45,168 bases of DNA from a virus. The DNA lies in the UHGV virus genome UHGV-0041136; one strand, 5' to 3'. The position numbers and the translations under genes were made by a program. This document shows, in pieces, positions 1-41,884 of this stretch. Below the pieces are notes generated by a model, which was not told the DNA's origin, did not search any database, and saw only the letters and a list, made by a program, of their open reading frames with translations. Each line of letters starts with the position of its first letter. Positions within the stretch are counted from its first letter, which is position 1.

Positions 1-304
1 ACAGCTTAATAATTGGGATAGTGACGCCGATGTGTAAGGCGAAGCGGGCCAGTGACGGGGGTTTATCCTGAATCAGTGGGCGTTCGTCGCCCTTAGACGT
101 AGGCACAAGTTCCCATGACGTGCGGTCGAAGAACTCGATTAACGCATCGCAATAGTCCGGGTCCCACAACGCGGCGGAATTACGGGATGATTGATAAAGG
201 CTCTGTTTGCCGCGTGGTCGTTTACGGCGACGGTTTGCGCTAACAGCTTCTTCATGTGCAGCTTGCACCACCTCTGGCGATGGCTGCTTGAGTTTCAGCT
301 TCAT
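1..304 (-). CDS. terS: terminase small subunit, N-terminal part (runs off window start; continues in frame at window end)
   Basis: ATG at 304..302 preceded by AAGGGGA; frame open to position 1; translation MKLKLKQPSPEVVQAAHEEAVSANRRRKRPRGKQ...DKPPSLARFALHIGVTIPIIKL has a basic N-terminus and HTH-like segment; lies just upstream of terL across the junction. Confidence 0.5.
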   Translation of the reverse strand, partial: MKLKLKQPSPEVVQAAHEEAVSANRRRKRPRGKQSLYQSSRNSAALWDPDYCDALIEFFDRTSWELVPTSKGDERPLIQDKPPSLARFALHIGVTIPIIKL

Positions 305-321
305 AGAATCCCCTTGCGTAT

Positions 322-363
322 GCGTCTGACCATCAGAGCGCATCAGACGCGCCCTACGCGTCT
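322..363 (-). repeat. repeat cluster in terS 5' leader (GCGTCTGA, CATCAGA x2 spaced 10 bp, TCAGACGC inverted copy, ACGCGTCT)
   Basis: read directly: tgcGTCTGAccATCAGAgcgcATCAGACGCgccctACGCGTCT between a TATAAT-like hexamer (375..370, minus) and the terS ATG. Confidence 0.4.
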
Positions 364-403
364 AAATGGATTATATAAGGGGATTGGGCGGGATGTACAG
401 AAA

Positions 404-421
404 AGCCCTCCGTAGAGGGCT
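404..421 (-). terminator. stem-loop AGCCCTC-cgta-GAGGGCT followed on the minus strand by TTTCTGT; candidate terminator separating the leftward small-gene operon from terS
   Basis: 7-bp perfect stem, 4-nt loop; U-rich tract only moderate. Confidence 0.35.
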
Positions 422-523
422 TGTATCAGTTATATAGGCCGTGTCGCGGTGCTCTTTTACCGTCGCCGCCGTAATGGTCGTTAGCTACGGCGATAGCCCA
501 GGCGTTGGAGATTATTAGTAGTC

Positions 524-703
524 TCATTTTAAGAATCTCAACAGGGCGTCCGCGATACCAGACGCCACTAGCCCGAAAAACATAGGCCACCAGATATATC
601 CAGGCAGATTGGTAAATGTTTCTGGCTTAGTACAGAAAGCCAGTAAAAACGCGAACCAAAACACCACGTAACTGATGTTGTTAATTAATTCTAAGATAAT
701 CAT
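524..703 (-). CDS. small hydrophobic protein (59 aa, about 2 predicted TM segments)
   Basis: ATG at 703..701 overlaps the upstream TGA (ATGA coupling); translation MIILELINNISYVVFWFAFLLAFCTKPETFTNLPGYIWWPMFFGLVASGIADALLRFLK; below the ORF-track size cut-off. Confidence 0.3.
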   Translation of the reverse strand: MIILELINNISYVVFWFAFLLAFCTKPETFTNLPGYIWWPMFFGLVASGIADALLRFLK

Positions 704-936
704 TCCCCGCTCTCCCCTTTAGCAATGCGTTGCTCTGTTTTAGTGATACCACGGCGCGTGAATAACACCGGGCTTGTCTTAACGTGTGTCATCAGACGGT
801 TGTTATAAATTACGTGGCGCTCACAATCAACGTCTTTGCTGTACTTCGCAATCGTCATTTCGTTGATGCCAGTTTGTCGGCATGTCTCGGCCATCGTGCC
901 AAATTCTTTAATCAGGTTCGGAATGCTGGTAATCAT
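700..936 (-). CDS. small HTH-like protein
   Basis: track ORF 700..960 begins at GTG; in-frame ATG at 936; segment AETCRQTGINEMTIAKYSKD resembles a helix-turn-helix. Confidence 0.4.
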   Translation of the reverse strand: MITSIPNLIKEFGTMAETCRQTGINEMTIAKYSKDVDCERHVIYNNRLMTHVKTSPVLFTRRGITKTEQRIAKGESGE

Positions 937-1092
937 CCTAAGAAATTCCTTGTTGTCCACATCGCATTCGGATATTTGTTATCGCGGTCCTGCACTACGG
1001 CAACCATGTTCCCACGTTGCACCAGGCAGAAGTGCCGTTGTTGCTCGCCGTTGTAGCGACGCCAGATTGCCTCTTCGATTGCGGCGTTGATG

Positions 1093-1353
1093 TCACTGAA
1101 CATACCCGATACCCCACATAACTAACATCCCAACCGCTACACCAATCAGAATTGATACAGTGGTATTCGTCCACACCCGTTGGCTACGCAAAGTTCCTGC
1201 GTTCTCCAGAATGTCGCGAACACGCGTTAAGTGTTCAATCTCCAGTCTCGCGGCTATCAGTTCCTGGGATGCTTTTGAATACTTACAGTTAATCTTATCA
1301 AGCGCCTTCTTAAGGTCTTTGTTGTTCTTCTTGATTTGTTCAATCTGTTCCAT
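1093..1353 (-). CDS. tail-anchored membrane protein (N-terminal coiled coil, C-terminal TM helix)
   Basis: ATG 1353 with GAGGTAG SD; C-terminus TTVSILIGVAVGMLVMWGIGYV is hydrophobic; N-terminus is heptad-like and charged. Confidence 0.5.
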   Translation of the reverse strand: MEQIEQIKKNNKDLKKALDKINCKYSKASQELIAARLEIEHLTRVRDILENAGTLRSQRVWTNTTVSILIGVAVGMLVMWGIGYVQ

Positions 1354-1355
1354 AA

Positions 1356-1538
1356 CTACCTCACTATCTCATCGCCAAGCCACGCCGTTTCTCGTATATC
1401 GTCGACCACACAGGCGGCGTGCTCACGGCTAATTGCAAAAATGTAGAAGCTGAACTTCTTCCCGTCGGCGTCGATGTGGTTAACCGAGTAGGGTTTCCAC
1501 AGGACGCCATCGATAACTACTGGCTCAGGCGCTTTCAT
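1356..1538 (-). CDS. hypothetical protein
   Basis: ATG 1538 overlaps stop of an upstream 47-aa ORF; coding-like composition. Confidence 0.4.
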   Translation of the reverse strand: MKAPEPVVIDGVLWKPYSVNHIDADGKKFSFYIFAISREHAACVVDDIRETAWLGDEIVR

Positions 1539-1669
1539 TCTTCATGCGCTCAAGTAACAACTTAAACGCCTCCAGTTGAAACTCACCGTTAATCGACAAT
1601 TGCCCGCCTAACGTCTGTTTCTCCGACTCAAGCACCATAATACGGCGCTCAAGTGATGCGATTGTGATT

Positions 1670-1855
1670 TTAGGCATTTGTGTCACCTTTGTTCAGGTTG
1701 AAGCGGTTAATTAGCTCACGGCGTGTCTCGTAAAGCGACTCGACCATTTGCTCAGCTACTGCGATTTTAGTATTCAGGACGTGCATCACATGGCTGATGT
1801 CTACGCCGCTGTTAACCGCCTCTACCATCATCTTTTCGTATTCACGGTCAGTCAT
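1670..1855 (-). CDS. hypothetical protein
   Basis: ATG 1855; packed in the minus-strand small-gene array. Confidence 0.4.
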   Translation of the reverse strand: MTDREYEKMMVEAVNSGVDISHVMHVLNTKIAVAEQMVESLYETRRELINRFNLNKGDTNA

Positions 1856-2009
1856 TTTTACGCTCTCCCCACATGCGATTGAGGTACTTGTTTTTGTCTG
1901 GCCCCAGGAAACTGTTACGTTTCATCAGTTCCTCGCGTGTCGGGAACGGGGTGTGACTGACTTTACGACCTACACGTAATGGCTGGCTTACTGGACCTTG
2001 TTCGCTCAT
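1848..2009 (-). CDS. hypothetical protein (53 aa from ATG 2009)
   Basis: track ORF starts at GTG 2051; internal ATG 2009 has AGGAGA SD 6 nt upstream. Confidence 0.35.
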   Translation of the reverse strand: MSEQGPVSQPLRVGRKVSHTPFPTREELMKRNSFLGPDKNKYLNRMWGERKND

Positions 2010-2023
2010 TTCTTCTCTCCTGT

Positions 2024-2239
2024 TTAGCATGTTATGTGTAATTCTAGCCACTCGACATCAGACTCAAGCTCTTTAATACGCGCCTCTAGTTTAGCTATTA
2101 AAGAGTCTCGGTACGCCAACTCAGCCGCTATTGCGCTTTTTGAGTTAAGGCCTTCGACCGTCATCGCATTGATATGCGCTGTGTAAAACCCGCCCTCTTC
2201 ATCAAGGACATCGATTTCTCTTTCCGCGTACAATTTCAT
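2024..2239 (-). CDS. hypothetical protein
   Basis: ATG 2239 overlaps TGA of the upstream small ORF. Confidence 0.4.
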   Translation of the reverse strand: MKLYAEREIDVLDEEGGFYTAHINAMTVEGLNSKSAIAAELAYRDSLIAKLEARIKELESDVEWLELHITC

Positions 2240-2385
2240 TTCTTCTCTCCTGCATAAGCGGCTTTCAGTGCCTGCATTGCAGCGGACCAGAACGCGTCCG
2301 CGGGAATGCTGTTGCTCAGGTTACTAACGGCGATGCGTGCCATCAGTTGTGCGTCTTCGAATGCTTCGATATCTGTGATTTTCAT
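2236..2385 (-). CDS. hypothetical small protein (49 aa)
   Basis: ATG 2385 with AGGAG SD; [49 protein letters not shown]; stop overlaps next ATG. Confidence 0.3.
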
Positions 2386-2492
2386 TTCCCAAACACTCCT
2401 TTAGTTTTCAGATTATGACGATAGAACTGCATCACATGCTCATTATGGAAGTTACTCATCTTCTCTACTCCGTTCTCGTTGTCGATGGAGTA

Positions 2493-2521
2493 AATATAAT
2501 AGGGTCTGGAGTAATAGTCAA
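2493..2521 (-). promoter_or_regulatory. sigma70-like promoter, minus strand (-35 TTGACT, 17-bp spacer, -10 TATATT)
   Basis: reverse complement of 2493..2521 reads TTGACT-N17-TATATT; spacer contains a degenerate copy of the shared element (AATATAATAGGGT); sits just downstream of the lysis-operon terminator. Confidence 0.45.
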
Positions 2522-2543
2522 CTAGTCATTGCAGAAAATAGAT

Positions 2544-2573
2544 AAAAAAATCCCGGCTGGGTCAGGGCCGGGA
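2544..2573 (-). terminator. rho-independent terminator after the endolysin gene
   Basis: TCCCGGC / GCCGGGA 7-bp stem; the plus-strand A7 run (2544..2550) gives a U7 tract after the hairpin on the minus transcript. Confidence 0.6.
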
Positions 2574-2647
2574 TAAAACTGGAGAGCAGAGGGATGGAAC
2601 AGGAGGTGATTGAGATGATTTAAGTATCGTCGGATTGGTCTCAGGTG

Positions 2648-3136
2648 TCAACCTTTCACCGCGCGCCCAATAGCCTCTGCCTCCCGCCACGGTTTACCAT
2701 CGAACAGCGCCAGGCGACCGGCGGTACGACGACGCAGACCAAGTAATGGTTTGCCATTCTGGTTGATGAACAGCGCCAGCTTAGCCCGCAGCGTCGCAAC
2801 ATCACCAGAACGCAGCGCCTTACCAGTGCCAGTAGTAGCCGCAATCACGCCAGCGCCTGCGTTATAGACCAGGTCACACACTGCGTCGAACTGTGCCTGT
2901 GTCAGTGAATGGTGTGCCGCTGCATCAACCGCAGCTACGGCTTTAGCCATATCGCGATTCAGTAACAGGAGGCCCTGACCTGGGGTGATGGTCTTACCCG
3001 GTGTTACATCCGGCCCATAGTGACCGTACCCAATAGTCAGGTACTTCTCATTCGGCGTAGCGCGATACGCAGTACCGCGGAACCCCTCGAACGCAGCGGT
3101 AAAATGCAATCCATTATCTGATATATTTCGAGACAC
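2648..3136 (-). CDS. endolysin, T4-lysozyme-like (GH24) muramidase
   Basis: FEGFRGTAYRATPNEKYLTIGYGH matches the GH24 catalytic region; GTG start at 3136 with GGAGGA SD 7 nt upstream (track ORF begins at an unlikely TTG 3187). Confidence 0.8.
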   Translation of the reverse strand: MSRNISDNGLHFTAAFEGFRGTAYRATPNEKYLTIGYGHYGPDVTPGKTITPGQGLLLLNRDMAKAVAAVDAAAHHSLTQAQFDAVCDLVYNAGAGVIAATTGTGKALRSGDVATLRAKLALFINQNGKPLLGLRRRTAGRLALFDGKPWREAEAIGRAVKG

Positions 3137-3386
3137 GCTTATGTCCTCCGTATGACAACCACGCCTGGCGAATCTGACGCAGCGCAACTAATGTGATTAA
3201 TGTTTCTGGCAGCGTCGGCGACATGCTGCCCTGTAGCAGGTGGATGCATCCGGCGGCGCAGACAATAGCGGTCAGGATATAGAGCACCCGACCAAATAGC
3301 CCGTCGTCAACACTCGGATGATACACATTAAACAGCGATGCGCCCCCGATTGCCAGCATACCGCCGAACCAGAATAACTCATTCAT
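3114..3386 (-). CDS. 2-TM membrane protein between holin and endolysin (second holin / antiholin candidate)
   Basis: ATG 3386 with GGAGG SD, overlaps holin stop; MNELFWFGGMLAIGGASLFNV...LYILTAIVCAAGCIHLL has two hydrophobic helices. Confidence 0.45.
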   Translation of the reverse strand: MNELFWFGGMLAIGGASLFNVYHPSVDDGLFGRVLYILTAIVCAAGCIHLLQGSMSPTLPETLITLVALRQIRQAWLSYGGHKRVSKYIR

Positions 3387-3687
3387 CCGGGCCTCCTCGA
3401 CGCGAGATGTATTCTCCGGCGACGATACCGGAGAGGCGGGAATAGATAGGCATCCAGAGGACAGCAATAATAAATCCGAGGCCAGCTATCTCACGTTCGC
3501 CGGTAATGCCAAACCATTGAGCAGCAAGAGGTGCGCCAAATACGGCGCAAGTGAAGCCGGTTGCGATAAAGCAGAAGCCATCGATAGGGCCAGAAATAAC
3601 GGACTTATGTTGCCGCAGTCCGATTACCCCTCCGGCTAGTGCGGCAGCGAGAAGCCACCCCGTCACTGTTTCAGTAAATTTATCCAA
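3379..3687 (-). CDS. holin candidate (about 3 TM segments)
   Basis: TTG start at 3687 with GGAGGA SD; three hydrophobic segments and charged C-terminus; first gene of the lysis cassette. Confidence 0.5.
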   Translation of the reverse strand: MDKFTETVTGWLLAAALAGGVIGLRQHKSVISGPIDGFCFIATGFTCAVFGAPLAAQWFGITGEREIAGLGFIIAVLWMPIYSRLSGIVAGEYISRRGGPDE

Positions 3688-3692
3688 GATGA

Positions 3693-3732
3693 ATCCTCCA
3701 GGTGCGTATTAAGTATGCAGTAACTGGAGGAT
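3693..3732 (-). promoter_or_regulatory. stem-loop that sequesters the holin Shine-Dalgarno
   Basis: perfect 9-bp inverted repeat ATCCTCCAG (3693..3701) / CTGGAGGAT (3724..3732), 22-nt loop; the 3' arm on the mRNA contains the GGAGGA SD of the holin. Confidence 0.45.
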
Positions 3733-3762
3733 AGCACGGTTAGGAATTATCTTAATAACGGT

Positions 3763-4056
3763 TTATTTATGACGCCAGATGTACTGTCGTCTCTGCGGTT
3801 TCGTTGGAATATCCTCGTATCCCAGCGATTTCCAGTAATTAAATAACCGATTAGCGATAGCTGCGCGTTCCTGTGTTTTAAACTCACCGAGATTCACAGC
3901 CTTCCCGTTCTGGAACCCACAGGCGCGGACGGCTTTGCGTCTGGCCTGAATCTCGGGGTACAGCGCATTACGGCGGCGCTTGTATATCTGTGTTTTAGCT
4001 CTCGGTGCCAGCGGCGCAAGGCCGCTTCGTTTCAGGATGTCAGTTGCTAGGTTCAT
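3763..4056 (-). CDS. hypothetical basic protein
   Basis: ATG 4056 overlaps upstream TGA; R/K-rich 97-aa product. Confidence 0.45.
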   Translation of the reverse strand: MNLATDILKRSGLAPLAPRAKTQIYKRRRNALYPEIQARRKAVRACGFQNGKAVNLGEFKTQERAAIANRLFNYWKSLGYEDIPTKPQRRQYIWRHK

Positions 4057-4235
4057 AAGTCGAGAATCTCACGCGCTAATTCATACGTCTTCCAGTCGCA
4101 CTGGCGGTCTATCACCTGTTTAGCAAGCCTACGTAACTTAAGCTCAAGTTTTACGTAGTCCGCGTAGGTCACGACCGCGACCCAATCCGCCCCGCTTCCA
4201 ATTTCACTCCCCCTAACCTCATATCTCTGTACCAT
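4053..4235 (-). CDS. small protein, MVQRY family copy B
   Basis: ATG 4235 with AGGAG SD; N-terminus MVQRYEV...YADYVKLELKL is paralogous to the neighbouring ORF. Confidence 0.4.
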   Translation of the reverse strand: MVQRYEVRGSEIGSGADWVAVVTYADYVKLELKLRRLAKQVIDRQCDWKTYELAREILDL

Positions 4236-4420
4236 CACTTCACTCCTTCCACATGTGTATCCGTCCCACAATTCGCACACTCGACGTAATCCGGGAACTG
4301 GTCTTTGTATTTCTGTAACTCGGCTTCGAGTTTCACGTAATCGTTATATAAGACCCAGTGCCCTTCATCACACGGGGCGACAAAACCACCCTGGAATAAG
4401 TATCTCTGTACCATAATCAC
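4235..4420 (-). CDS. small protein, MVQRY family copy A
   Basis: MIMVQRYLF...YNDYVKLEAELQKY shares the MVQRY...DYVKLE pattern with 4053..4235. Confidence 0.4.
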   Translation of the reverse strand: MIMVQRYLFQGGFVAPCDEGHWVLYNDYVKLEAELQKYKDQFPDYVECANCGTDTHVEGVK

Positions 4421-4620
4421 TTCTCCTGTTTACCAAGTCGCTTAGGTGAGCAGATAGCGCGTACCTCTGAATCGTTAGGCTTGTCACCCTGAAACAGAAA
4501 GTGCGCGTTCTCTGCGGCGCGTGCCGCTGACTGGCACGCCTCCATCGAGTAAAACGTTTCTGTTGCCGCCAGGTGCATATGGCCTGCGGACAGTATCCAT
4601 ATAAATAAGATGCTGGTCAT
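4417..4620 (-). CDS. small protein with hydrophobic N-terminus (possible signal peptide)
   Basis: ATG 4620 overlaps upstream TGA; MTSILFIWILSAGHMHLAA... (track ORF extended to 4677). Confidence 0.35.
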   Translation of the reverse strand: MTSILFIWILSAGHMHLAATETFYSMEACQSAARAAENAHFLFQGDKPNDSEVRAICSPKRLGKQEK

Positions 4621-4979
4621 GTCGTTTCCCCACATCTGCGGCGCACAAAATAATCCTCGTCGGCGTCTAACACCCAATCATGCTCACCTATTTGGCAACC
4701 GGATTGCTCCCGTTCGCGGATAAGTTTGTACAGCTCTTCGCTACCCGTAGCTTTGACCAGTGCCATGTGTAGCTCCTTAACTTGTCCTGTCAGGTGCGAT
4801 ATGTGCTCAGATTTCTTAATGTTGTCTTTCTGCAACTCGCCCACCAGCTCCGACGCATCACGCAACTGGTTCTTAAGTGACTGCACCTCGTGCGCCAGGT
4901 CTTCGCACTGGTTGCTGTTTACCTGCTGCCGTAGCTGGTCAATCAGGTACTCGAATACTTCGTTTTTGCTATTCATCAT
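4617..4979 (-). CDS. hypothetical coiled-coil protein
   Basis: ATG-ATG at 4979/4976; first gene downstream of the promoter at 5118..5146. Confidence 0.5.
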   Translation of the reverse strand: MMNSKNEVFEYLIDQLRQQVNSNQCEDLAHEVQSLKNQLRDASELVGELQKDNIKKSEHISHLTGQVKELHMALVKATGSEELYKLIREREQSGCQIGEHDWVLDADEDYFVRRRCGETT

Positions 4980-5117
4980 CCACCCCCATCATTACTTCAC
5001 AGTTATCACCGTCGCACGCCGAAGTGCTGCGACTTGTTTCATAGGCGTCAACCAGTTCACCTAAAGTAAATTCACAATAGCTGTTCACTCTGTCTCTCCT
5101 CTCGTTTGAGTAAATGA

Positions 5118-5146
5118 ATAGTAGCCTATTCTATCTTAGTGTGCAA
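5118..5146 (-). promoter_or_regulatory. conserved promoter element, minus strand (-35 TTGCAC, 17 bp, -10 TACTAT) with AATAG-N4-CTATT inverted repeat
   Basis: plus strand tgAATAGtagcCTATTctatcttagtGTGCAAg; the same core recurs at 6468, 30060, 39165 and 41829. Confidence 0.5.
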
Positions 5147-5221
5147 GTTAATTTTATTGGTGTTTGTATTGTTGCATCTCCTGCAATAGTCGCTCCGATT
5201 GTTGCGTTTGGTGAAATAGAA

Positions 5222-5260
5222 CAAAAATGAGAAAAATGATACGCTGCTGGGTAGCAGCGT
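5222..5260 (-). terminator. rho-independent terminator after the DUF551 pair
   Basis: ACGCTGCT-gggt-AGCAGCGT 8-bp stem; minus transcript then reads ATCATTTTTCTCATTTTTG. Confidence 0.55.
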
Positions 5261-5274
5261 AAGTCACAAAGCCA

Positions 5275-5288
5275 AATAGTAACCTATT
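5275..5288. promoter_or_regulatory. additional AATAG-N4-CTATT operator-like site
   Basis: AATAGtaacCTATT followed by TTGACC; between the DUF551 gene end and the terminator. Confidence 0.3.
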
Positions 5289-5306
5289 GACCTGTTACAC
5301 CACCTG

Positions 5307-5504
5307 TTACACCAGCGATGGCGGCTCTGGTAACGGCATCCAGTGGGTAACATCGTCACTACTGATATTCGAGTTACGCGGCGCCCAACAATCCCAGAAG
5401 CCATCGCAATCCCGCCACATCACCTCAACGTTACCCCCATCCGAAACCAGCACATCTTCAAATTCTTCCGGCATCCGTTCACTACACTCAATCCACTTAC
5501 CCAT
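5307..5504 (-). CDS. DUF551-like small protein, copy 1
   Basis: MGKWIECSERMPEE...VTHWMPLPEPPSLV; WMPLPEPP C-terminus as I recall for DUF551 phage proteins. Confidence 0.5.
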   Translation of the reverse strand: MGKWIECSERMPEEFEDVLVSDGGNVEVMWRDCDGFWDCWAPRNSNISSDDVTHWMPLPEPPSLV

Positions 5505-5514
5505 ATCTCACCCC

Positions 5515-5700
5515 TTATTCATCACACTTCAGAGACTCAGGTAACGGCATCCAGTGTGTTACGCCAACACACTTAACGTATCCATCACAAACAAAGTCAC
5601 CGATGTATCTTGCTATAAAGCCATACCCGGCGCGGGCATAAACAATTACGTCCTCACCCTCTTCCGGCATCCGTTCACTACACTCAATCCACTTACCCAT
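5515..5700 (-). CDS. DUF551-like small protein, copy 2 (tandem paralog)
   Basis: MGKWIECSERMPEEGEDV...VTHWMPLPESLKCDE; identical first 14 residues and shared C-terminal motif with 5307..5504. Confidence 0.5.
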   Translation of the reverse strand: MGKWIECSERMPEEGEDVIVYARAGYGFIARYIGDFVCDGYVKCVGVTHWMPLPESLKCDE

Positions 5701-5850
5701 AAATCACCTCTGATTCGCGATAAACAACACACCAGCTTTCCACGCCCGCCACGCGAGACGCGTCTTAACGTTCAGGTACTCTTTCTTCGAACCCTTGTTA
5801 ACCGGCAGACCCTCGACGACGGCCCACCGTTCAAATGCTTCTCTCATAAC

Positions 5851-6042
5851 TTAGTCCTCCAGAACTTCGCATTCAGAATTACGGACGAACAAATACTCAA
5901 GGCAATGGTTTACGACAAACCCATACTCATTACGAATCACCACGTCAAATTCATCCCCAACGGAGACACCAAAGTACGCAAGGCTAACGTCCAGGTATTC
6001 CTCTGAGCATGTCTGCTCGATGTCAGTTATACGAATTCTCAT
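5851..6042 (-). CDS. hypothetical protein
   Basis: ATG 6042 overlaps upstream TAA; track start 6051 is TTG. Confidence 0.35.
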   Translation of the reverse strand: MRIRITDIEQTCSEEYLDVSLAYFGVSVGDEFDVVIRNEYGFVVNHCLEYLFVRNSECEVLED

Positions 6043-6242
6043 TAACGGCAACCTCCCTCAGAGTCGTCGGCACGAGCATCATGATTCGATGCCGTTCGTA
6101 TGGAGCGCAAACTGTGAAGCATTCTTCCCGCGGAACTGGTGATAATTGTTATCCCATCTAAAATAACAACCTCGTACCGGTTTACTTGAAAATACACTTT
6201 CTCCAGTTCATGATGTTTCAGTTCTTCAAATAATTCTTCCAT
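6042..6242 (-). CDS. hypothetical protein
   Basis: ATG 6242 shares one base with the upstream TGA. Confidence 0.35.
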   Translation of the reverse strand: MEELFEELKHHELEKVYFQVNRYEVVILDGITIITSSAGRMLHSLRSIRTASNHDARADDSEGGCR

Positions 6243-6433
6243 CACTTCGCCCCTTTGAATTTAAAATTGTTGCCGATGAGCTCTAAATTATCGCGTAAGG
6301 CGAACCCAGTTTTCTTTCTTACCAGACCCCATACGTCAACCAGATTATCCTGGTCATACTCGTTCTCGTCCTGCAACACTAATACATATTGCCCTCCACG
6401 TTTAGTTTTAGCCAATTGACCCTTCTTAAACAT
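6242..6433 (-). CDS. hypothetical protein, first gene of the leftward operon
   Basis: ATG 6433 with AGGAG SD about 25 nt downstream of the promoter at 6468..6496. Confidence 0.45.
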   Translation of the reverse strand: MFKKGQLAKTKRGGQYVLVLQDENEYDQDNLVDVWGLVRKKTGFALRDNLELIGNNFKFKGAK

Positions 6434-6467
6434 AACCCTCACTCCTCTGTCTCGTTCCGATAAGTGA

Positions 6468-6496
6468 ATAGTATCCTATTATGTTGGGGTGTGCAA
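6468..6496 (-). promoter_or_regulatory. conserved promoter element, minus strand (-35 TTGCAC, 17 bp, -10 TACTAT) with AATAG-N4-CTATT
   Basis: plus strand gtgAATAGtatcCTATTatgttggggtGTGCAAg; near-identical to the element at 30060..30089 in reverse orientation. Confidence 0.5.
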
Positions 6497-6568
6497 GAGA
6501 ATAGTTACGTTGCCGTTGTGATTCTTCAGGGAGGGTTGTGCCTTTATTCTTATTACTTGGTAACTAAA

Positions 6569-6589
6569 GGGCAGGCCTTAAGCCTGCCC
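6569..6589. other. perfect 8-bp stem-loop GGGCAGGC-cttaa-GCCTGCCC in the divergent control region
   Basis: read directly; lies between divergent promoters so not obviously a terminator. Confidence 0.35.
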
Positions 6590-6866
6590 GGTAATCGTTA
6601 CATTTTTACGGTTGCGAATCTACGGCACTTTAAGAAAATCAGATACTTAAGAGATATGCTGCCGATGAGAATAGAGCTTGCCCAGAGCAACCGGAGATAC
6701 TAAGGAAGGAAAGTTACGATAATTCTCGTGTTCAGTAAGCCTGTGTTTAACCCTTTGCTTGACGCACGTGTTAAACATTCTTACAAGGTGAACAGGAATC
6801 AAAGTAACTAAGATATAGAAGCACCTTAAACGAAGATTTTCATAATGTCAATAGGTGCAATTATGT

Positions 6867-6895
6867 TTGATTTCCCATTATTCGCAATGTATACT
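6867..6895 (+). promoter_or_regulatory. candidate rightward promoter for the replication operon (-35 TTGATT, 17 bp, -10 TATACT)
   Basis: AT-rich region about 30 nt upstream of the HTH gene ATG 6928. Confidence 0.35.
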
Positions 6896-6927
6896 CGATT
6901 TTGTTAACTGATAATGAGGGTTTGAGA

Positions 6928-7098
6928 ATGACACAGAATGAGGTAGCTGAGCGTATCGGGGTTACTCGTCGAACGCTGAATAACTGGTTAAAGAGTGGGA
7001 AGTTCCCGGATTGTTGTATCCGCATTATGGGCCGCCGTCAGCCAGGTACTTTTGACCGGGAGAAAGTGGAAGCGTGGATTAAGGAGAATGTAAAATGA
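6928..7098 (+). CDS. small HTH DNA-binding protein (AlpA / excisionase-like HTH)
   Basis: ATG 6928 with GAGGG SD (track begins at TTG 6901); NEVAERIGVTRRTLNNWLKSGKFP...REKVEAWIKE resembles AlpA/Xis-type HTH. Confidence 0.55.
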   Translation: MTQNEVAERIGVTRRTLNNWLKSGKFPDCCIRIMGRRQPGTFDREKVEAWIKENVK

Positions 7099-7328
7099 CC
7101 GAGTTCCAGTCACGTGTATTTACGGCGGTCGTTTCGTTAACACGTAAAAAAGGGTCGTGCAGCGTTATCGACTTGCGCCGTAGTTATTTTAAGTACTATA
7201 GTTCAGCCATTATTGAAGGGTCGTTAAAGGTACTGGTTAAATCCGGTGTCGTGAAAAACGTTGGCGGGAAATATAGCGCCGTTGCAGAAGTTCGCGGAAT
7301 GGCAGCCACTTTAGAAGACCTGGAATAA
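7095..7328 (+). CDS. hypothetical protein (C-terminus ...ATLEDLE)
   Basis: ATG 7095 with AGGAG SD, ATGA overlap. Confidence 0.5.
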   Translation: MTEFQSRVFTAVVSLTRKKGSCSVIDLRRSYFKYYSSAIIEGSLKVLVKSGVVKNVGGKYSAVAEVRGMAATLEDLE

Positions 7329-7386
7329 AAGAAAGCCCCGACGCGGTGAACGCCGAGGCCAAATTACTTGCTGAAGGAAATACAAC

Positions 7387-9627
7387 ATGTCCGATGTAAT
7401 TTTATCCTACTCGTGGTCACGTCGCAACGCGCGGGCGGAGAAAAAGGATATAAACGTCAGAACCACGCATACGGCAACACTGGATGACCTGAAAGAGTTA
7501 ATCCAGCCACTGGATGCCGTTCGTGGCGGAATTAACCCTAAGACTGCGCCTGGCTATATTACTGCCGCGTGCGACTCGACGCACAGCACCGTAAAAGACC
7601 CGGAAACCGGTGACTTTAAGCAAGCGCGCAAAGGCTTCTTTTATCGCTGCGACGCGTCTGTAAGCAAATCGTCGCTGGCGTATCTTGACTTCGACAGCGC
7701 AACGCCGGAAGAGTATCAGGAAGCGGTGCGCCTGGTTAAGCGCAGCCGCCATGCTATGTGCCTATACACTACAGCGTCACATACCGATGAGTCGCCGCGC
7801 TTTCGCGTCGTCATGCCGCTGGCCCGCCCGGTCGAAGGCGGCAACATCATCCGTGTTCGTCATGGATTGCTCGAGCACTTCTTCAAAGGCATGGGCGCTG
7901 ACCGCAGCGGGTTCACTCTGTCGCAGCCGATGTACCTGCCGCCGGTCGGCTCACAGGTTATCTGGTCGCGTCGCAACGACCTGATCGACCCTGACGAGTT
8001 ACTGGAAGGCGTACCGGATTACGAGGTGAGCAGCGCATCTGACTATCAGATACCAGAAGAACTGCGCACTGCATTTACTGATGCGTTCGAAGCGCTGGCG
8101 TTTGAGTACGGAGGTATCATGACGCCCCGCGGCCTTAAGATGCCAGCTACGCCGGAACACGCAGAGAACTACAGCGACCCGACACCTCGCCCGGACGACT
8201 TCCTGCTGTGTTTCCCGCGTGAAGGGTACGAAGCGCCGAACGTAACCATGATTCACGACACCGACATTACAGCAACCGAAGGCATGTCGCCGAAAGAGGT
8301 GTGGAAATACGCGTGCGATGCGACCGGGCTGCCGTTCAGTGAAGTCGCCGAGGCTATCGGATGGGGTGCGCGTGAGTCAGTTTCATGCAGCCTCGACGAC
8401 CTGGAAGACGAGGATGACTCCGAGGAGGACGAGCTACCGGAACCGGTAAAGGCTGATTTCGTCGTTGAGGGGTACATGCCGTCGGATTGCATCTGGGATA
8501 TCGTCGGGGAATCTGGCACGTACAAATCGTTCTATACGCTGGGGATGATGTACCTTAGCGCCTCCGGATACCGGTTTGCGGGCGCTGACACACAGCGTTG
8601 CCACCACTTCTATATCGACGGTGAGGGTGGCGCAGCCACACGTACACGTATTGACGCGCTCGCGGCTAAATACGGCGCAGAGGGTAAAGATTATGTACAC
8701 GTCATCGACATGGGTGAAGTCGGCAAACTTAAAAGCCTGATTAAGTTAATGCGTGAAACTGCGGGCGATGAACCTATTGGCATGGTCGCGTTCGACACCC
8801 TCAACCAGACGCTGGCCCTGACGATTGATAAGTTTGACGAGAACAGTTCATCAACGGCAATCGGCATGGGTAAAGTTATCGCCATCCTGAAAGAAGTACG
8901 CGACGCGACTAAAGCCGCGGTAGGTGTTGTCCATCATACGCCGAAGGGGGGAAAGAAAGCCCGTGGCAGCGGGGCACTGTATGCAGGTGTCGACGTGGAA
9001 CTGACAATCGAACGTGCAACCGACCGTCAAATAAATGTATACCACTCTAAATTTAAGCACGGGCCTCAACAGAAAACTGTCGGTATGGTTCTGGAGTCCG
9101 TACAGTTCCGTGAAGCCCCGCCGCCGAAAGAATACCGTGCTGTTGAGTTCCTGGGTAGCACCGAGGAATATGGCACAATCGTAAACCTCGACCTGCCTGA
9201 GCCTCACAAGGCGCTTGTGCTGATGCCGTGGGGCTTCGAGCCGTTCAAGATTGACGAGGAGAAAGAGCGGGAAGAAGGGCTGACGAAAGAAGGTAAAGAA
9301 AACGTAAAGAATGCTGTAAAACGCGGGAAGGATGAAGGGCGTAAGGAATCAATACTCGCCGCGCTGGAAGACCTGCAACAGTCTAACGACACCGGACGAG
9401 GTTTTACCCAACGGCAGATAGTAGCGAACTCGGGCGACCACGCCATCACCAACCACCATCTCGAGAAGATGCTGAAAGACGGGGAGTTGATGCTCGGGTG
9501 CGATGTTAACGGTGAAGTTATGCCAGGCACATACCGGATACCGGAAAAGATGGGTGACAGATTAAGACCGAAGACAATATACGAACCAAATGAAATGCTA
9601 ACAGTGACAGAGGAGGATTTGGAGTAG
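7387..9627 (+). CDS. primase/helicase-type replication protein (N-terminal primase-polymerase-like, C-terminal RecA-like ATPase)
   Basis: YLDFDSATPEEY (DxD) in N-terminal half; acidic linker; Walker A GESGTYKS and VVHHTPKGG motif in C-terminal half; ends VTEEDLE. Confidence 0.7.
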   Translation: MSDVILSYSWSRRNARAEKKDINVRTTHTATLDDLKELIQPLDAVRGGINPKTAPGYITAACDSTHSTVKDPETGDFKQARKGFFYRCDASVSKSSLAYLDFDSATPEEYQEAVRLVKRSRHAMCLYTTASHTDESPRFRVVMPLARPVEGGNIIRVRHGLLEHFFKGMGADRSGFTLSQPMYLPPVGSQVIWSRRNDLIDPDELLEGVPDYEVSSASDYQIPEELRTAFTDAFEALAFEYGGIMTPRGLKMPATPEHAENYSDPTPRPDDFLLCFPREGYEAPNVTMIHDTDITATEGMSPKEVWKYACDATGLPFSEVAEAIGWGARESVSCSLDDLEDEDDSEEDELPEPVKADFVVEGYMPSDCIWDIVGESGTYKSFYTLGMMYLSASGYRFAGADTQRCHHFYIDGEGGAATRTRIDALAAKYGAEGKDYVHVIDMGEVGKLKSLIKLMRETAGDEPIGMVAFDTLNQTLALTIDKFDENSSSTAIGMGKVIAILKEVRDATKAAVGVVHHTPKGGKKARGSGALYAGVDVELTIERATDRQINVYHSKFKHGPQQKTVGMVLESVQFREAPPPKEYRAVEFLGSTEEYGTIVNLDLPEPHKALVLMPWGFEPFKIDEEKEREEGLTKEGKENVKNAVKRGKDEGRKESILAALEDLQQSNDTGRGFTQRQIVANSGDHAITNHHLEKMLKDGELMLGCDVNGEVMPGTYRIPEKMGDRLRPKTIYEPNEMLTVTEEDLE

Positions 9628-9636: not shown

Positions 9637-9655
9637 AAGGGGCGTTAAGCCCCTT
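9637..9655. terminator. bidirectional hairpin terminator between convergent genes
   Basis: AAGGGGC-gttaa-GCCCCTT; A-run upstream on plus strand gives a T-run after the hairpin on the minus transcript. Confidence 0.5.
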
Positions 9656-9860
9656 CACCGAACGCCAGCCACTTGGCGTCTACTTGCAGCACTTCCGCCA
9701 GTTTAAACAGCGTCGCCGGGCGGACGTCCTGAGTTACCCCGAGCGCAAGCTGGTTAATTGCGCCCTGGGAAACGCCAGCCAGAACAGCCAGACGGCGCTG
9801 GGAGATGCCGAGTTCTTTACGGCGTTGTTCTACACGGATGCCTAGTTCAGATGGTTGCAT
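9645..9860 (-). CDS. XRE-family HTH regulator (Cro/CI-type)
   Basis: ATG 9860 with AAGGAG SD; RRKELGISQRRLAVLAGVSQGAINQLALG is a classic HTH_3 segment; only minus-strand gene inside the plus-strand module. Confidence 0.75.
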   Translation of the reverse strand: MQPSELGIRVEQRRKELGISQRRLAVLAGVSQGAINQLALGVTQDVRPATLFKLAEVLQVDAKWLAFGEGA

Positions 9861-9888
9861 GTCAATTACTCCTTAGTTAGTTGATATG

Positions 9889-9905
9889 TGAATAGTACCA
9901 TATTA
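9889..9905 (-). promoter_or_regulatory. operator copy (AATAGtaccATATT) overlapping the extended -10 (TGgTACTAT) of the regulator promoter
   Basis: minus strand reads ...aatatggTACTATtcacatatc...AAGGAG...ATG. Confidence 0.45.
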
Positions 9906-9924
9906 ATTATTTTAGAAAAGCCCA

Positions 9925-9953
9925 TTGACATAATGAATAGTTAGCTATTATAG
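9925..9953 (+). promoter_or_regulatory. class II promoter: -35 TTGACA, operator AATAGttagCTATT overlapping -10 (TATTAT/ATTATA)
   Basis: cccaTTGACAtaatgAATAGttagCTATTatag, 35 nt upstream of ATG 9986; same arrangement at 12629..12656. Confidence 0.5.
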
Positions 9954-9985
9954 TTAGCCCATACCAAACGAGAGGAGAGAAACAA

Positions 9986-12628: not shown

Positions 12629-12656
12629 TTGACACCTGAATAGTTAGCTATTATAG
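12629..12656 (+). promoter_or_regulatory. class II promoter: -35 TTGACA, operator AATAGttagCTATT, -10 TATTAT
   Basis: gtgTTGACAcctgAATAGttagCTATTatagtt, same arrangement as 9925..9953. Confidence 0.5.
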
Positions 12657-12725
12657 TTTTAATCACTGGCCGGGCAGCTTCCCGGAGTAAACTTTGAAAT
12701 ATAAACTGAAAAGCGAGAAATCACG

Positions 12726-30059: not shown

Positions 30060-30089
30060 TTGCACACCCCAATATAATAGGGTACTATT
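30060..30089 (+). promoter_or_regulatory. conserved promoter element, plus strand (-35 TTGCAC, 17 bp, -10 TACTAT) with AATAGggtaCTATT
   Basis: cTTGCACaccccaatatAATAGggTACTATTcac, 28 nt upstream of ATG 30117. Confidence 0.5.
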
Positions 30090-30116
30090 CACCTGTAACT
30101 TACTGAGGAAATAATT

Positions 30117-30443
30117 ATGCGTAAATTAGTATTAGCTCTGGGGTTTATGTCTTTTGCTACTTTTGGGTCCCCGTGCGAACAGGTATTTAGTGAATCTGTT
30201 CTTATGGCTTCTGGTGCGCTTGAGAAAGCCGACCCTACTATTGTAAAGGCATTTAAGGACTCTACAGTTCGCGAGTGTGAGGCCGCCGTAGATGTCGGTA
30301 AATCGGGCCTACCCCCGCAAGCCGTAACATACACGGTAGTACGTTCGGTAGAGCAAAACGGAGACGCGTTTTATAGCCTACTGACAGCCACCCGTCTGCA
30401 AATGGTGATGACTGGATGGGCGATAGGCGCGGAAAGTAAATAG
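30117..30443 (+). CDS. secreted small protein (signal peptide)
   Basis: MRKLVLALGFMSFATFGSP... cleavable signal-like N-terminus; first gene of cassette A. Confidence 0.55.
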   Translation: MRKLVLALGFMSFATFGSPCEQVFSESVLMASGALEKADPTIVKAFKDSTVRECEAAVDVGKSGLPPQAVTYTVVRSVEQNGDAFYSLLTATRLQMVMTGWAIGAESK

Positions 30444-30507
30444 TCGCCTTTATTTAAAGGAATCCACTGTGGTTAAATAGGACAAATCCTAAGCACGAGG
30501 AATAAGC

Positions 30508-31638
30508 ATGGCCCGGAAGAAAATAACCGACGAACAGTTGCAGGAAGAATTGAACGCCGGTATGAAGAATATCGACATCGCCCGTAAATACGGCATCTCA
30601 GACCGCGTAATTCGCATCCGTAAAGCGAAGCTGGCTAAGAAAGGCGTAGGCCACGGGCGCGACGTCAGCCACCTTGTGCCAGATGGCTACAAGATTAAAG
30701 GAACGTCGTCCCTGGTGGACGAGTTTGGCAACACTAAGTTGCAATGGGTTAAGACTGACACCGATGCTGAACGTCAGGTCGAGTTGATGAAAGCCGTAAT
30801 TGAAGGCATGAAGTCAGAGATTACCCCCGTTGCGCCTGTTAAAGCGACTCGAGCCAAACGTGACGATAAACTGCTCAATCTTTACACTGTATCTGATTTC
30901 CATCTCGGTATGCTGGCATGGGCCGACGAGAGCGGCGACGACTGGGACATGAAGATTGCGGAAGACCTGTTCTCTCGATGGTTCGACGCTGCGTTTCAGA
31001 AGGCACCAGACGCCGGGACAGGGGTTATTAACCTGCTGGGCGACCTTGCGCACTTCGATAGTCTGGACGCGGTTACCCCCGCAAGTGGTCACGTTCTTGA
31101 CGCCGATACCCGCTACCAGAAACTTGTCCGCTACATGATTCGCATGGTCCGTCGTGTTGTTGATATGGCCCTTGTTAAGCATAAAAATGTTCGCTTGCTT
31201 ATTGTGCAAGGTAACCACGACGAGAGTGGCATGATTTGGTTGGCTGAGATGTTCAGTACGCTATACGACAACGAGCCGCGTGTGTTTGTCGATACGTCGC
31301 CGGATGTTTACAAAATGGTGCAACACGGCAAAACGACGCTGTTCTTTACACACGGGCATAAATGCCGGTTTGAGGTGGTCGAACCCATTATGATAGCTAA
31401 GTTCAGAAAAGCATTTGGCGAAAGCGAGTACAGTTACGCACATGTCGGGCATCTCCACCACCAAAAGATTGTAGAAAGTAGGAATATGGTGGTGGAGCAG
31501 CATCGCACTCTCGCGGCGAAAGATGCATATGCTTCTCGCGGCGGGTGGATGTCTAAGAGGTCCGCTAATGTCATAACCTATAGTTCAGAGTTCGGGGAAG
31601 TAGGTAGGCTTTCAATCTCACCGGAGATGCTAAGATGA
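30508..31638 (+). CDS. HTH-domain protein fused to calcineurin-like metallophosphoesterase
   Basis: N-terminal NIDIARKYGISDRVIRIRKAKL (HTH-like); MPP motifs VSDFHLG (DxH), GDLAHFD (GDxxD), GNHDE, FTHGH, GHLHH in canonical order. Confidence 0.7.
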   Translation: MARKKITDEQLQEELNAGMKNIDIARKYGISDRVIRIRKAKLAKKGVGHGRDVSHLVPDGYKIKGTSSLVDEFGNTKLQWVKTDTDAERQVELMKAVIEGMKSEITPVAPVKATRAKRDDKLLNLYTVSDFHLGMLAWADESGDDWDMKIAEDLFSRWFDAAFQKAPDAGTGVINLLGDLAHFDSLDAVTPASGHVLDADTRYQKLVRYMIRMVRRVVDMALVKHKNVRLLIVQGNHDESGMIWLAEMFSTLYDNEPRVFVDTSPDVYKMVQHGKTTLFFTHGHKCRFEVVEPIMIAKFRKAFGESEYSYAHVGHLHHQKIVESRNMVVEQHRTLAAKDAYASRGGWMSKRSANVITYSSEFGEVGRLSISPEMLR

Positions 31639-31865
31639 CTTCAAAATACAACCGAACAATGACAAATATTCACGGCAGCACTATGACGGTAGACGTTTAT
31701 GATGTGCTGCGTGCCTTCGATATCCGCGACCCGGCGTTACAGCACGCATTGAAGAAACTATTGTGTATGGGCCTTCGCGGACACAAAGACACAGGAACCG
31801 ACTTAGCAGAAGCAATTGAAAGTTTGGAGAAGTTACGGGAGTATAGAAGCAATATTGATGAGTAA
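31635..31865 (+). CDS. hypothetical small protein translationally coupled to the phosphoesterase
   Basis: ATGA overlap at 31635..31638. Confidence 0.45.
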   Translation: MTSKYNRTMTNIHGSTMTVDVYDVLRAFDIRDPALQHALKKLLCMGLRGHKDTGTDLAEAIESLEKLREYRSNIDE

Positions 31866-31869
31866 GAAA

Positions 31870-31889
31870 AAGGCCCCGAAAGGGGCCTT
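31870..31889 (+). other. stem-loop AAGGCCCC-gaaa-GGGGCCTT (GNRA loop) without T tract
   Basis: between 31865 and HNH gene. Confidence 0.35.
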
Positions 31890-31908
31890 ATCGCGATAGG
31901 AGATAATT

Positions 31909-32397
31909 ATGGATTGGAATGAATTTTTCATATACGACTTAATTTCAGGAAGGATATTTAACAGAGTAACACGGTCCGGGAGGGCTAAGGCTGGAGAGGA
32001 GGCGGGTACTATACAGCGAGACGGATATAGAAGGATATTTTTCAGAGGCAAATGGCACGCGGCGCACCGTATAGCATGGGACTTAAACAATCCTAACGAT
32101 AAGCTAACGTCGTCAGATCAAATAGACCATCTAGACCATAACCGAATAAACAATAGACCGCTTAACTTAGCTAAAAAGTCCAATGCGGAAAACCATAAAA
32201 ATATGTCAAAACAGCGTAATAATAAATCAGGAGTAACTGGGGTTTACTGGAATGCAAAAGAAAGGTTGTGGTATGCACAGATATTCAACAATAACGTAAA
32301 AACGCATATAGGGTGCTTTAAGACGCTACTAGATGCAGTTGCCGCGAGGAGAGTTGCTGAAAGAGATTTGGGGTTCCACAATAACCACGGCAAATAG
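31909..32397 (+). CDS. HNH homing endonuclease with AP2-type DNA-binding domain
   Basis: HNH core GKWHAAHRIAW...IDHLDHNRINNRPLNL...NH; C-terminal GVTGVYWNAKERLWYAQIFNNNVKTHIGCFKTLLDA resembles AP2; AT-rich codon usage. Confidence 0.7.
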   Translation: MDWNEFFIYDLISGRIFNRVTRSGRAKAGEEAGTIQRDGYRRIFFRGKWHAAHRIAWDLNNPNDKLTSSDQIDHLDHNRINNRPLNLAKKSNAENHKNMSKQRNNKSGVTGVYWNAKERLWYAQIFNNNVKTHIGCFKTLLDAVAARRVAERDLGFHNNHGK

Positions 32398-39215: not shown

Positions 39216-39220
39216 AGTAT

Positions 39221-41879: not shown

Positions 41880-41884
41880 GAAAA

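Follow-up and report, generated by a model that had tools for sequence, protein, structure and literature searches.

In the annotated phages of the genus Kagunavirus (Guernseyvirinae), a common gene order is observed: terL, terS, small open reading frames (ORFs), endolysin, holin, holin, small ORFs, a divergent control region, a helix-turn-helix (HTH) gene and a helicase-primase gene. A palindromic promoter motif of these phages has already been published, twice. It was found by PHIRE as a conserved 'phage promoter' of Kagunavirus Golestan (PMC7203180, Table S4), and the consensus tgAATAGTa-ccTATTat-T was reported for fBC-Eco01 (PMC9825357). Here, we describe the leftward arrays of small genes in UHGV virus genome UHGV-0041136, a stretch of 45,168 nucleotides which is referred to as the window. 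Positions 399-6496 of the window are occupied by three leftward units, each of which is a predicted sigma-70 operon closed by an intrinsic terminator. We consider it probable that what is seen here is the usual left arm of a virulent siphophage of the genus Kagunavirus, composed of three leftward operons of small genes and lysis genes. The feature is real and well delimited, but it is ordinary, genus-typical and already sequenced: dozens of deposited Kagunavirus genomes contain these arrays, promoters and lysis genes as well, mostly under the annotation of hypothetical proteins.

Genome identity

Positions 1-7400 were compared by megablast with 50,697 phage records, of which 435 were matched. 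The best matches are the Kagunavirus coliphages BEU33, vB_VIPECOMC04 and NTEC3 with 90-92% identity, and no record at all covers more than 75% of the query. All of the top 25 matches come from Escherichia or Shigella phages that belong to Kagunavirus or resemble it, and they show 89-92% identity across 65-75% of positions 1-7400. On the basis of similarity and synteny with genomes classified by the International Committee on Taxonomy of Viruses, the window is assigned to Kagunavirus. It represents a complete, circularly permuted genome whose start falls inside terS, and an ENA metagenome assembly contains a near-identical contig of 45,172 bp. No tRNA or tmRNA was found in a scan of the whole window, and an Rfam scan of positions 1-7500 gave no matches at E-values up to 0.1.

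Coding content of the leftward arrays

On the minus strand between positions 426 and 6433, 26 ORFs (g0-g25) were called, 24 of them inside 700-6433. The sequence-only reading of this DNA had described a dense leftward array of small ORFs packed with ATGA overlaps, and this description is borne out. Six junctions are ATGA overlaps, several more genes overlap by 1-23 nt, and an independent gene caller applied to the 45,172-bp ENA contig returned 23 of the 26 ORFs with identical lengths, leaving g0 (33 aa), g3 (56 aa) and g19 (39 aa) uncalled. The genes are listed below in the order of their transcription.

g25, 6242-6433, minus strand: PHROG match
g24, 6042-6242, minus strand: PHROG match
g23, 5851-6042, minus strand: PHROG match
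g22, 5704-5847, minus strand: PHROG match; precomputed PF26207 (Phage_phiTE_015)
g21, 5515-5700, minus strand: DUF551 (PF04448)
g20, 5307-5504, minus strand: DUF551 (PF04448)
g19, 4969..5088, minus strand: 39 aa, hyper-acidic, net charge -9, GTG start; phrog_35344, E 1.5e-7
g18, 4617-4979, minus strand: coiled coil and degenerate Zn-ribbon
g17, 4417-4620, minus strand: weakly hydrophobic N-terminus; conserved
g16, 4235-4414, minus strand: paralogue of g15
g15, 4053-4235, minus strand: paralogue of g16, E 4e-6; no PHROG
g14, 3763-4056, minus strand: isoelectric point (pI) 11; weak AP2-like fold; conserved
g13, 3379-3687, minus strand: predicted holin, TTG start; phrog_2359, E 5.9e-29
g12, 3114-3386, minus strand: predicted holin; phrog_2508, E 1.2e-33
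g11, 2648-3136, minus strand: GH24 endolysin; PF00959, E 5.6e-27
g10, 2236-2385, minus strand: small gene
g9, 2024-2239, minus strand: cassette insert
g8, 1848-2009, minus strand: DUF2737 (PF10930), 33.1 bits against a cutoff of 25
g7, 1670-1855, minus strand: small gene
g6, 1525-1677, minus strand: small gene
g5, 1356-1538, minus strand: small gene
g4, 1093-1353, minus strand: C-terminal transmembrane (TM) segment; no PHROG; homologues in seven phage records
g3, 933-1103, minus strand: small gene
g2, 700-936, minus strand: NinH-like
g1, 524-703, minus strand: two hydrophobic segments
g0, 426-527, minus strand: 33 aa

Alignments to 11 related loci contain 617, 381 and 2467 substitutions at codon positions 1, 2 and 3, respectively. 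The ORFs are therefore coding sequences under purifying selection. PHROG matches were obtained for 20 of the 22 non-lysis ORFs scanned (g0 lay outside the scan), with E-values from 1e-7 to 1e-54; g4 and g15 gave none. With Pfam counted as well, a family match exists for 24 of the 25 scanned ORFs. It is hardly credible that chance reading frames or decaying remnants among real genes make up many of the small ORFs. Such a view could draw on the three ORFs passed over by the automatic gene caller, the missing Shine-Dalgarno (SD) sequence of g3, the absence of the third-position excess in g15, the conservation of g24 only from residue 16 on and the loss of two of four zinc ligands in g18. However, the third-position bias is strong overall, g3 itself shows 5/1/68 substitutions by codon position with 95-100% identity in 8 of 11 relatives, the PHROG E-values are low, and the family of g19 is kept across 133 clusters. 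As regards g24, homologues in K1G, K1ind2/3 and others align from residue 16 on, and the stretch is unannotated in several records; its true start may be the GTG at 6197, giving 51 aa.

The earlier statement that none of the ORFs matches a nameable family does not hold, since several families are recognised within the span: Phage_lysozyme (PF00959, the endolysin), two holin PHROGs, DUF551 in two proteins, DUF2737 in one, and a NinH-like protein. The DUF551 proteins g20 and g21 score 57.1 and 53.5 bits (cutoff 22) and are tandem paralogues (E 8e-16). DUF551 occurs within the C-terminal domain of a variant of Ea22 from Stx phage and also in the prophage protein YfdS (PMC10834534, PMC4776307). 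A literature search for DUF2737 found nothing. g2 matches phrog_268 strongly (E 3e-30), and its relatives are annotated as NinH or as transcriptional regulator. Against NinH (PF06322) it scores 23.4 bits (E 5.5e-5, profile positions 7-56 of 60), which is under the gathering cutoff of 29.8, and it is called no more than NinH-like; in the earlier reading, g2 had been described as HTH-like. NinH of lambda is a Fis-like protein with homodimeric DNA binding and bending (PMC7166090). Sequence searches of the PDB with g20, g2 and g14 gave nothing better than E 0.17.

g2, g14 and g18 look like DNA-binding or regulatory proteins. The family of g18 comprises 1,237 proteins in which a conserved coiled coil at the N-terminus is combined with one to three CxH..CxxC modules at the C-terminus, and an assignment of g18 as Gam-like was dropped on account of this architecture. 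The g18 of the window has lost two of four putative zinc ligands (ECEHDW to IGEHDW and ECRRCG to VRRRCG) together with a short RKEDAQ segment. Features read earlier from the translations, namely a tail-anchored coiled coil in g4 and hydrophobic proteins g1 and g17, were recovered: a C-terminal hydrophobic segment is present in g4, g1 is hydrophobic, and g17 is weakly so at its N-terminus.

Promoters, terminators and transcription units

The predicted units and their signals are as follows.

Unit 1, P1 to T1, 5307..6433, minus strand: g25-g20
Unit 2, P2 to T2, minus strand: g19-g14 and the lysis cassette
Unit 3, P3 to T3, 426..2385, minus strand: g10-g0
P1, 6468..6496, minus strand: promoter TTGCAC (6496-6491)-17-TACTAT (6473-6468); palindrome TAATAGGATACTATTC (6466-6481) overlaps the -10 element
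P2, 5118..5146, minus strand: promoter TTGCAC (5146-5141)-17-TACTAT (5123-5118); palindrome GAATAGGCTACTATTC (5116-5131)
P3, 2493..2521, minus strand: sigma-70 type promoter TTGACT-17-TATATT, 10/12 matches, without the palindromic motif
T1, 5228..5261, minus strand: terminator, 9-bp stem followed by a U-run; fold 5240-5261, -15.8 kcal/mol, z -5.7
T2, 2543..2574, minus strand: terminator, 8-bp GC stem followed by U7; fold 2550-2574, -13.8 kcal/mol, z -3.0
T3, 399..421, minus strand: terminator-like hairpin AGCCCUC-UACG-GAGGGCU followed by UUUUCU; -15.6 kcal/mol, z -3.4

P1 and P2 have a 53-nt repeat in common, with the palindrome AATAG-N4-CTATT lying over the -10 element. Both are kept in 11 of 11 relatives, and P2 is also present in 26 IMG/VR contigs, leading into a conserved 5' untranslated region (5'UTR) and SD sequence, AAACGAGAGGAGAGACAGA. 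The hexamers of P3 are conserved across 18 loci while its spacer is variable. Among 37 related loci, which differ in extent, T1 is present in all 37, T2 in 29 (identical in 28) and T3 in 21. T1 was also called by a consensus scan, and T3 precedes a promoter-like site (399-370) and terS. The promoters placed earlier at 6468, 5118 and 2493..2521 and the terminators near 5222..5260 and 2544..2573 are therefore retained, whereas the two transcription units of that reading become three, the third ending at the hairpin 399-421.

The stem of T1 is invariant in the 37 loci. Its 4-nt loop is ACAC in 22 loci and GTGT in 15, which are mutually complementary, and CCCA in the window. Another hairpin, GGGCAGGCcttaaGCCTGCCC at 6569-6589, is GC-rich and folds with about -20 kcal/mol on either strand, with a weak U-tract on the minus strand; it sits between P1 and the rightward HTH gene in an AT-rich divergent control region of 467 bp.

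A palindromic motif and its candidate regulator

The 16-bp palindrome TAATAGGnTACTATTC / TAATAGGGTACTATTC is a genus-wide motif, and its P1/P2 form, (T/G)AATAGGnTACTATTC, encloses the -10 element. With three mismatches allowed, the window contains 15 matches against 0.86 expected, a number reached by none of 100 shuffles, and 10 of 12 motif sites are intergenic as read from the ORF lists. The motif lies over the -10 element in five promoters. In two strong rightward promoters, TTGACA-18-TATAGT (9925-9954) and TTGACA-17-TATAGT (12629-12657), with 11/12 matches each, it is found in the spacer, about 5 bp nearer to the -35 element than in P1 and P2. Complete copies of the P1/P2-type promoter on the plus strand at 30060, 39165 and 41829 are predicted to drive plus-strand genes in or beside the structural block. 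P3 and the promoter-like site before terS both have no palindrome.

Because the sequence of the palindrome is kept while its register against the hexamers shifts, it appears operator-like and not a polymerase recognition sequence. We accept the earlier description of these promoters as operator-bearing as the best reading of a repeated palindrome with shifted register that is missing from P3 and the terS site; binding is what we infer from this pattern. The likeliest arrangement would be that a phage-encoded dimeric HTH protein binds the palindrome, so that the promoters of this class are jointly turned off or on. The leading candidate for the binder, suggested by motif positions, is an XRE-type protein encoded within the rightward replication arm. 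Two motif copies, 45 bp apart, are located upstream of its gene: one (9890-9905) over the -10 element of the XRE gene and the other (9935-9950) inside the promoter 9925-9954. The gene and a further copy of the motif are given below.

9648-9860, minus strand: XRE-type HTH gene, about 70 aa, PF13560 and PF01381 matches
5274..5289, minus strand: orphan motif copy CAATAGGTTACTATTT without -35 element, just upstream of T1

In its layout, 9648-9954 is reminiscent of a small Cro/CI-style switch, here in a virulent phage. Near the orphan copy, a 12-nt tandem duplication (GGTGTAACAGGT x2) spans the stop codon of g20 and precedes the motif (5274-5320); duplication and orphan motif may together be a recombination scar of the DUF551 duplication.

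The plus-strand genes behind the promoter copies were inspected by eye from their translations. In region 30060-32397, the first product (108 aa) starts with a stretch resembling a signal peptide; it is followed by a product of 376 aa in which motifs like those of metallophosphoesterases are seen, and by an HNH-AP2-like endonuclease. Region 39165-40033 encodes a 270-aa PAPS-reductase-like protein (FSGGRTS motif). A 94-aa ORF follows the third copy (41829-42169). The promoter copies at 39165 and 41829 are identical through the SD sequence.

Core genes and exchangeable cassettes

Core and variable genes were separated with a tblastn matrix of the ORFs against the 11 relatives. g2, g5, g8, g10, the lysis genes, g14, g17 and g22 are near-invariant in most or all relatives and g3, g6 and g7 are mostly conserved, while g1, g4, g9, g15, g16, g19, g20, g21 and g23-g25 are variable or rare. 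Roughly half of the ORFs thus form the core, and the rest are located in cassette slots bounded by conserved junctions.

The first slot lies directly after P2. Promoter, 5'UTR and SD sequence are conserved in 36 genomes, and 11 unrelated clusters are represented by the first gene behind them. The slot is occupied in 20 of these 36 genomes by a fast-diverging g19-like microprotein of 37-59 aa with a net charge of -4 to -13, and the family alignment shows a motif Y..TLgEL..aYe..vCDGD followed by an acidic tail. A search of a collection of 5.8 billion proteins with this alignment as query returned 133 clusters at 90% identity, none of which is functionally annotated and which lie mostly on contigs of phage-genome size; the family is known only from Kagunavirus-type genomes. 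Structure modelling covered g14 and g19. The AlphaFold2 model of g19, made from a 47-sequence alignment, is poor, a single helix with a predicted local distance difference test score of 61.

The second slot (2006..2252, minus strand) is located at the stop codon of g10. A 17-nt junction, CAGGAGAGAAGAAATGA, present at 2236-2252 and 2006-2022 in 100% identical copies, brackets g9 exactly, and genes of 8 different clusters were found behind the same junction across 28 genomes. Apart from one other Kagunavirus, homologues of g9 are mostly from T5-like Escherichia and Klebsiella phages (about 65% identity). From their boundary sequences, we interpret both slots as sites of classical modular exchange. 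Such hypervariable slots would fit host-interaction genes, on circumstantial grounds.

Lysis cassette

The lysis cassette (about 1 kb, 2648-3687) sits in the middle of the second transcription unit, behind six small genes, and its genes g13, g12 and g11 overlap successively. g11 scores 95 bits against PF00959 (cutoff 22.3, profile positions 2-122 of 125) and matches the PHROG endolysin families phrog_33703 and phrog_7 (E 2e-47 and 1.6e-39). Inspection of its catalytic triad by eye shows Glu17 (FEG) and Thr34 (LTIGYGH), which are 17 residues apart against 15 with the spacing of T4 lysozyme, and no Asp or Cys aligns unambiguously. g12 and g13 are predicted holins by PHROG lysis category, with maximal 19-residue Kyte-Doolittle scores of 2.06 and 1.78, and relatives annotate the two holins as class I-like and class II-like.

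When all ORFs of 30 aa or more in positions 1-8000 were inspected, no convincing spanin (Rz/Rz1 or u-spanin) and no canonical lipobox was seen. g4 was rejected as a spanin because its topology is the reverse, the coiled coil being cytoplasmic and the TM segment C-terminal. g1 contains LAFC followed by a second hydrophobic segment and was rejected because 59 aa are too short to cross the periplasm. Upstream of g13, positions 3688-3762 form a 75-nt gap where, between the gene of the first holin and that of the g14 homologue, several relatives have an HslV-family peptidase gene of about 440 bp. Within this gap, CCUCCAG can pair with CUGGAGG, the SD sequence of g13 (free energy -16.1 kcal/mol, z -2.6).

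Search for anti-defence functions

The block had been proposed to be a host-takeover or anti-defence pool, and profile searches of NCBIfam, PADLOC and PHROG gave no credible match to anti-defence families such as Ocr, ArdA, gp5.9, Gam, Arn, Stp, Acb, Tad, Gad, Apyc and Acr. In NCBIfam, a search with 20 ORFs produced just chance-level matches far under the curated cutoffs, for g2 and the coiled-coil protein g18. PADLOC profiles gave three weak matches among 22 ORFs, not attributed to particular ORFs, which were discounted (best E 1e-3). No PHROG of known function was matched by the scanned ORFs outside the lysis genes.

Data on relatives in the BASEL collection point in the same direction. Bas70, 72, 74 and 76 are absent from the AntiDefenseFinder sheet, and the genus is named just in seven rows of the phage list, Bas70-76 (PMC11990801). 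Kagunaviruses are highly sensitive to restriction-modification (RM), which cuts the plating of Bas70 and Bas71 by about 10^4- to 10^6-fold; the efficiency of plating of Bas70 is 8e-6 with EcoKI, 7e-6 with EcoRI, 3e-6 with EcoRV and 4e-5 with EcoPI, and the values for types I-III range overall from about 3e-6 to 5e-4 (PMC11990801). The RM sensitivity of these relatives therefore argues against an effective conserved anti-restriction function in close relatives of the window phage. Positive support for an anti-defence role comes from none of these results, although unrecognised inhibitors may be present among the variable cassettes. Exclusion by the Old system of phage P2 is triggered by RecBCD inhibitors. 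The sensitivity of Kagunaviruses to Old is variable in BASEL (PMC11990801), and it would, as a speculation, fit a variable RecBCD inhibitor.

Interpretation of the leftward operons

The observations can be combined in the following model. Host sigma-70 RNA polymerase would read three consecutive leftward operons, each ended by an intrinsic terminator. Units 1 and 2 would start at the genus-wide TTGCAC-17-TACTAT promoters, whose -10 element is embedded in the palindrome TAATAGGnTACTATTC, and binding of this palindrome by a dimeric phage HTH protein may co-switch the promoter class. Unit 2 would provide the products of six small genes, followed by two holin-like proteins and a soluble GH24 endolysin. 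Unit 3 would be read from a plain promoter through a nin-region-like set (NinH-like, DUF2737 and others) ending just before terS. The conserved backbone (g2, g3, g5-g8, g10, g14, g17, g18 and g22) probably encodes regulatory, DNA-binding or membrane proteins which the phage itself needs, and exchangeable cassettes would be inserted at two conserved junctions, the promoter-5'UTR-SD stretch after P2 and the SD-ATGA stretch after g10. Of this model, gene content, conservation, cassette structure and the layout of promoters and terminators are established, and timing, operator function and any activity towards the host are inferred.

Several points weigh against this model. The -35 elements of P1 and P2 are weak (3/6 matches), so that both promoters are missed by a simple sigma-70 consensus scan, and the counts from that scan are not above those of shuffles (12 promoter-like sites against 8.8 and 7 terminator-like sites against 6.0). 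The case for promoters and terminators therefore rests on repetition and conservation and not on consensus score. The arms of the palindrome are just 5-6 bp long and partly coincide with the -10 element; for P1 and P2 alone it could be promoter sequence. The choice of the binder is a guess, an HTH_17 protein (6929-7098) and the NinH-like g2 being equally available, and the DNA-binding assignments of g14 and g2 lie under the family thresholds. Transcript data for Kagunavirus were not found in the searched literature, where a search for transcription or early-gene studies in Kagunavirus or Jerseyvirus also gave nothing useful, and the unit boundaries and timing are read from sequence alone.

It is possible, although we regard it as doubtful, that the block is a lambdoid-type nin/ea accessory region kept in a virulent phage, whose genes modulate phage DNA transactions and expression and not host defence, with roles such as a nucleoid-protein mimic, recombination or replication helpers and a late-gene regulator upstream of lysis. 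The order in lambda is nin-Q-SRRz-Nu1, which is mirrored by the succession of small genes, lysis genes, small genes and terminase in the window. The similarity of g2 to a DNA-bending protein of lambda, the occurrence of DUF2737 and of DUF551, the latter shared with Ea22 and YfdS proteins, the position of the very basic g14 directly upstream of the holins and a NinX-family gene in the rightward arm are all consistent with such an origin. However, lambdoid counterparts exist for just 3-4 of 23 small ORFs, g2 falls under the NinH Pfam cutoff, DUF551 and DUF2737 are families that have no function assigned to them, and the hypervariable acidic cassettes would be left unexplained. More unlikely still is the proposal of the sequence-only reading that the arrays as a whole are an early host-takeover or anti-defence pool, in which most ORFs would be inhibitors of host defence or macromolecular synthesis. 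Small and often acidic proteins do lie behind early-type promoters (g9, g16, g18, g19, g20 and g23 have pI values of 4.1-5.1), there are two hypervariable cassette slots, the g19 family is diversified into its many clusters, and the variable Old sensitivity of BASEL Kagunaviruses is compatible with a variable RecBCD inhibitor. Yet the same span holds the lysis cassette and about ten near-invariant core genes, matches neither a credible NCBIfam or PADLOC profile nor a host-takeover PHROG, and belongs to a genus for which the AntiDefenseFinder sheet is empty in the BASEL phages looked up and whose members Bas70 and Bas71 are restricted by RM types I-III. With packaging genes adjoining unit 3 and lysis genes within unit 2, these units are not obviously 'early'.

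What stands of that proposal is the presence of leftward operons of tiny genes with variable cassettes, and the anti-defence label at best fits a variable minority of the ORFs. The exchangeable cassettes, including the hyper-acidic microproteins, are the only plausible candidates for host interaction or counter-defence, and the acidic microproteins of the first slot are the most suggestive among them. One could go further and imagine the slot after P2 as a dedicated arms-race locus, in which the g19 family would form a new class of early inhibitors, intrinsically disordered or mimicking DNA, that act on a nuclease or a defence sensor of the host (RecBCD, for example), with the palindrome promoters serving a Cro-like early shut-off run by the XRE protein 9648-9860. 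A RecBCD-type inhibitor would agree with the variable response of Kagunaviruses to Old, but we hold this combined scheme to be quite improbable. The model of three leftward operons in a standard Kagunavirus left arm is preferred, and its value is that it corrects the map of a group of phages which serve in therapy and synthetic biology. The map gives the site of the lysis cassette, separates core from exchangeable genes, indicates natural points for cargo swaps (after P2 and after the g10 junction) and names a palindrome that probably co-regulates non-structural promoters. If an acidic microprotein of the first slot does inhibit a host factor, it would represent a modest new family.

Comparison with known systems

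The early clusters of T7 (0.3-0.7), T4 and T5 are similar to the arrays described here in having small acidic proteins directly behind strong early host-type promoters and a content that is highly variable between close relatives. In contrast to those clusters, no sequence relation of the present genes to Ocr, gp5.9, Arn, Stp, Acb, Tad, Gad or further catalogued families was found, either in the searches made here or with AntiDefenseFinder in relatives, and the Kagunavirus relatives are fully restriction-sensitive. With Cro/CI-type circuits, the window shares a 16-bp palindrome which overlaps core promoter elements at multiple promoters and of which two copies, 45 bp apart, are placed between an XRE-type gene read leftward and a strong promoter facing rightward. 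Unlike in those circuits, the phage has no integrase or lysogeny module, and the candidate operator covers at least 8 promoters genome-wide, including those of plus-strand genes inside the structural block.

The nin and lysis regions of lambda (ninA-I, Q, S-R-Rz and Nu1) likewise consist of tiny coupled and largely dispensable-looking ORFs, including a NinH-like one, followed by holin and endolysin and then terminase, and genes are exchanged there at conserved junction sequences. The differences are that the window phage is virulent, that its small ORFs are located on both sides of the lysis genes, and that a Q-type antiterminator, Rz/Rz1 spanins and NinB/NinG recombination genes were not recognised in the block.

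The closest systems are the left arms of the Kagunaviruses compared here, K1G, K1ind2, NTEC3, vB_VIPECOMC04, SZH-1, phiWAO78-1, Golestan and BASEL Bas70-76. Just 70-75% of the region aligns with any single relative. Unlike them, the window carries a tandem pair of DUF551 genes, and it lacks the HslV-like peptidase gene that several of them have between holin and g14. It also carries g4, known from just 7 phage records, and g9, otherwise found mostly in T5-like phages. Apart from these differences, the window and its relatives have the same gene order, the same P1, P2, T1 and T2, the same palindromic motif, and DNA that is 90-92% identical in the shared parts.

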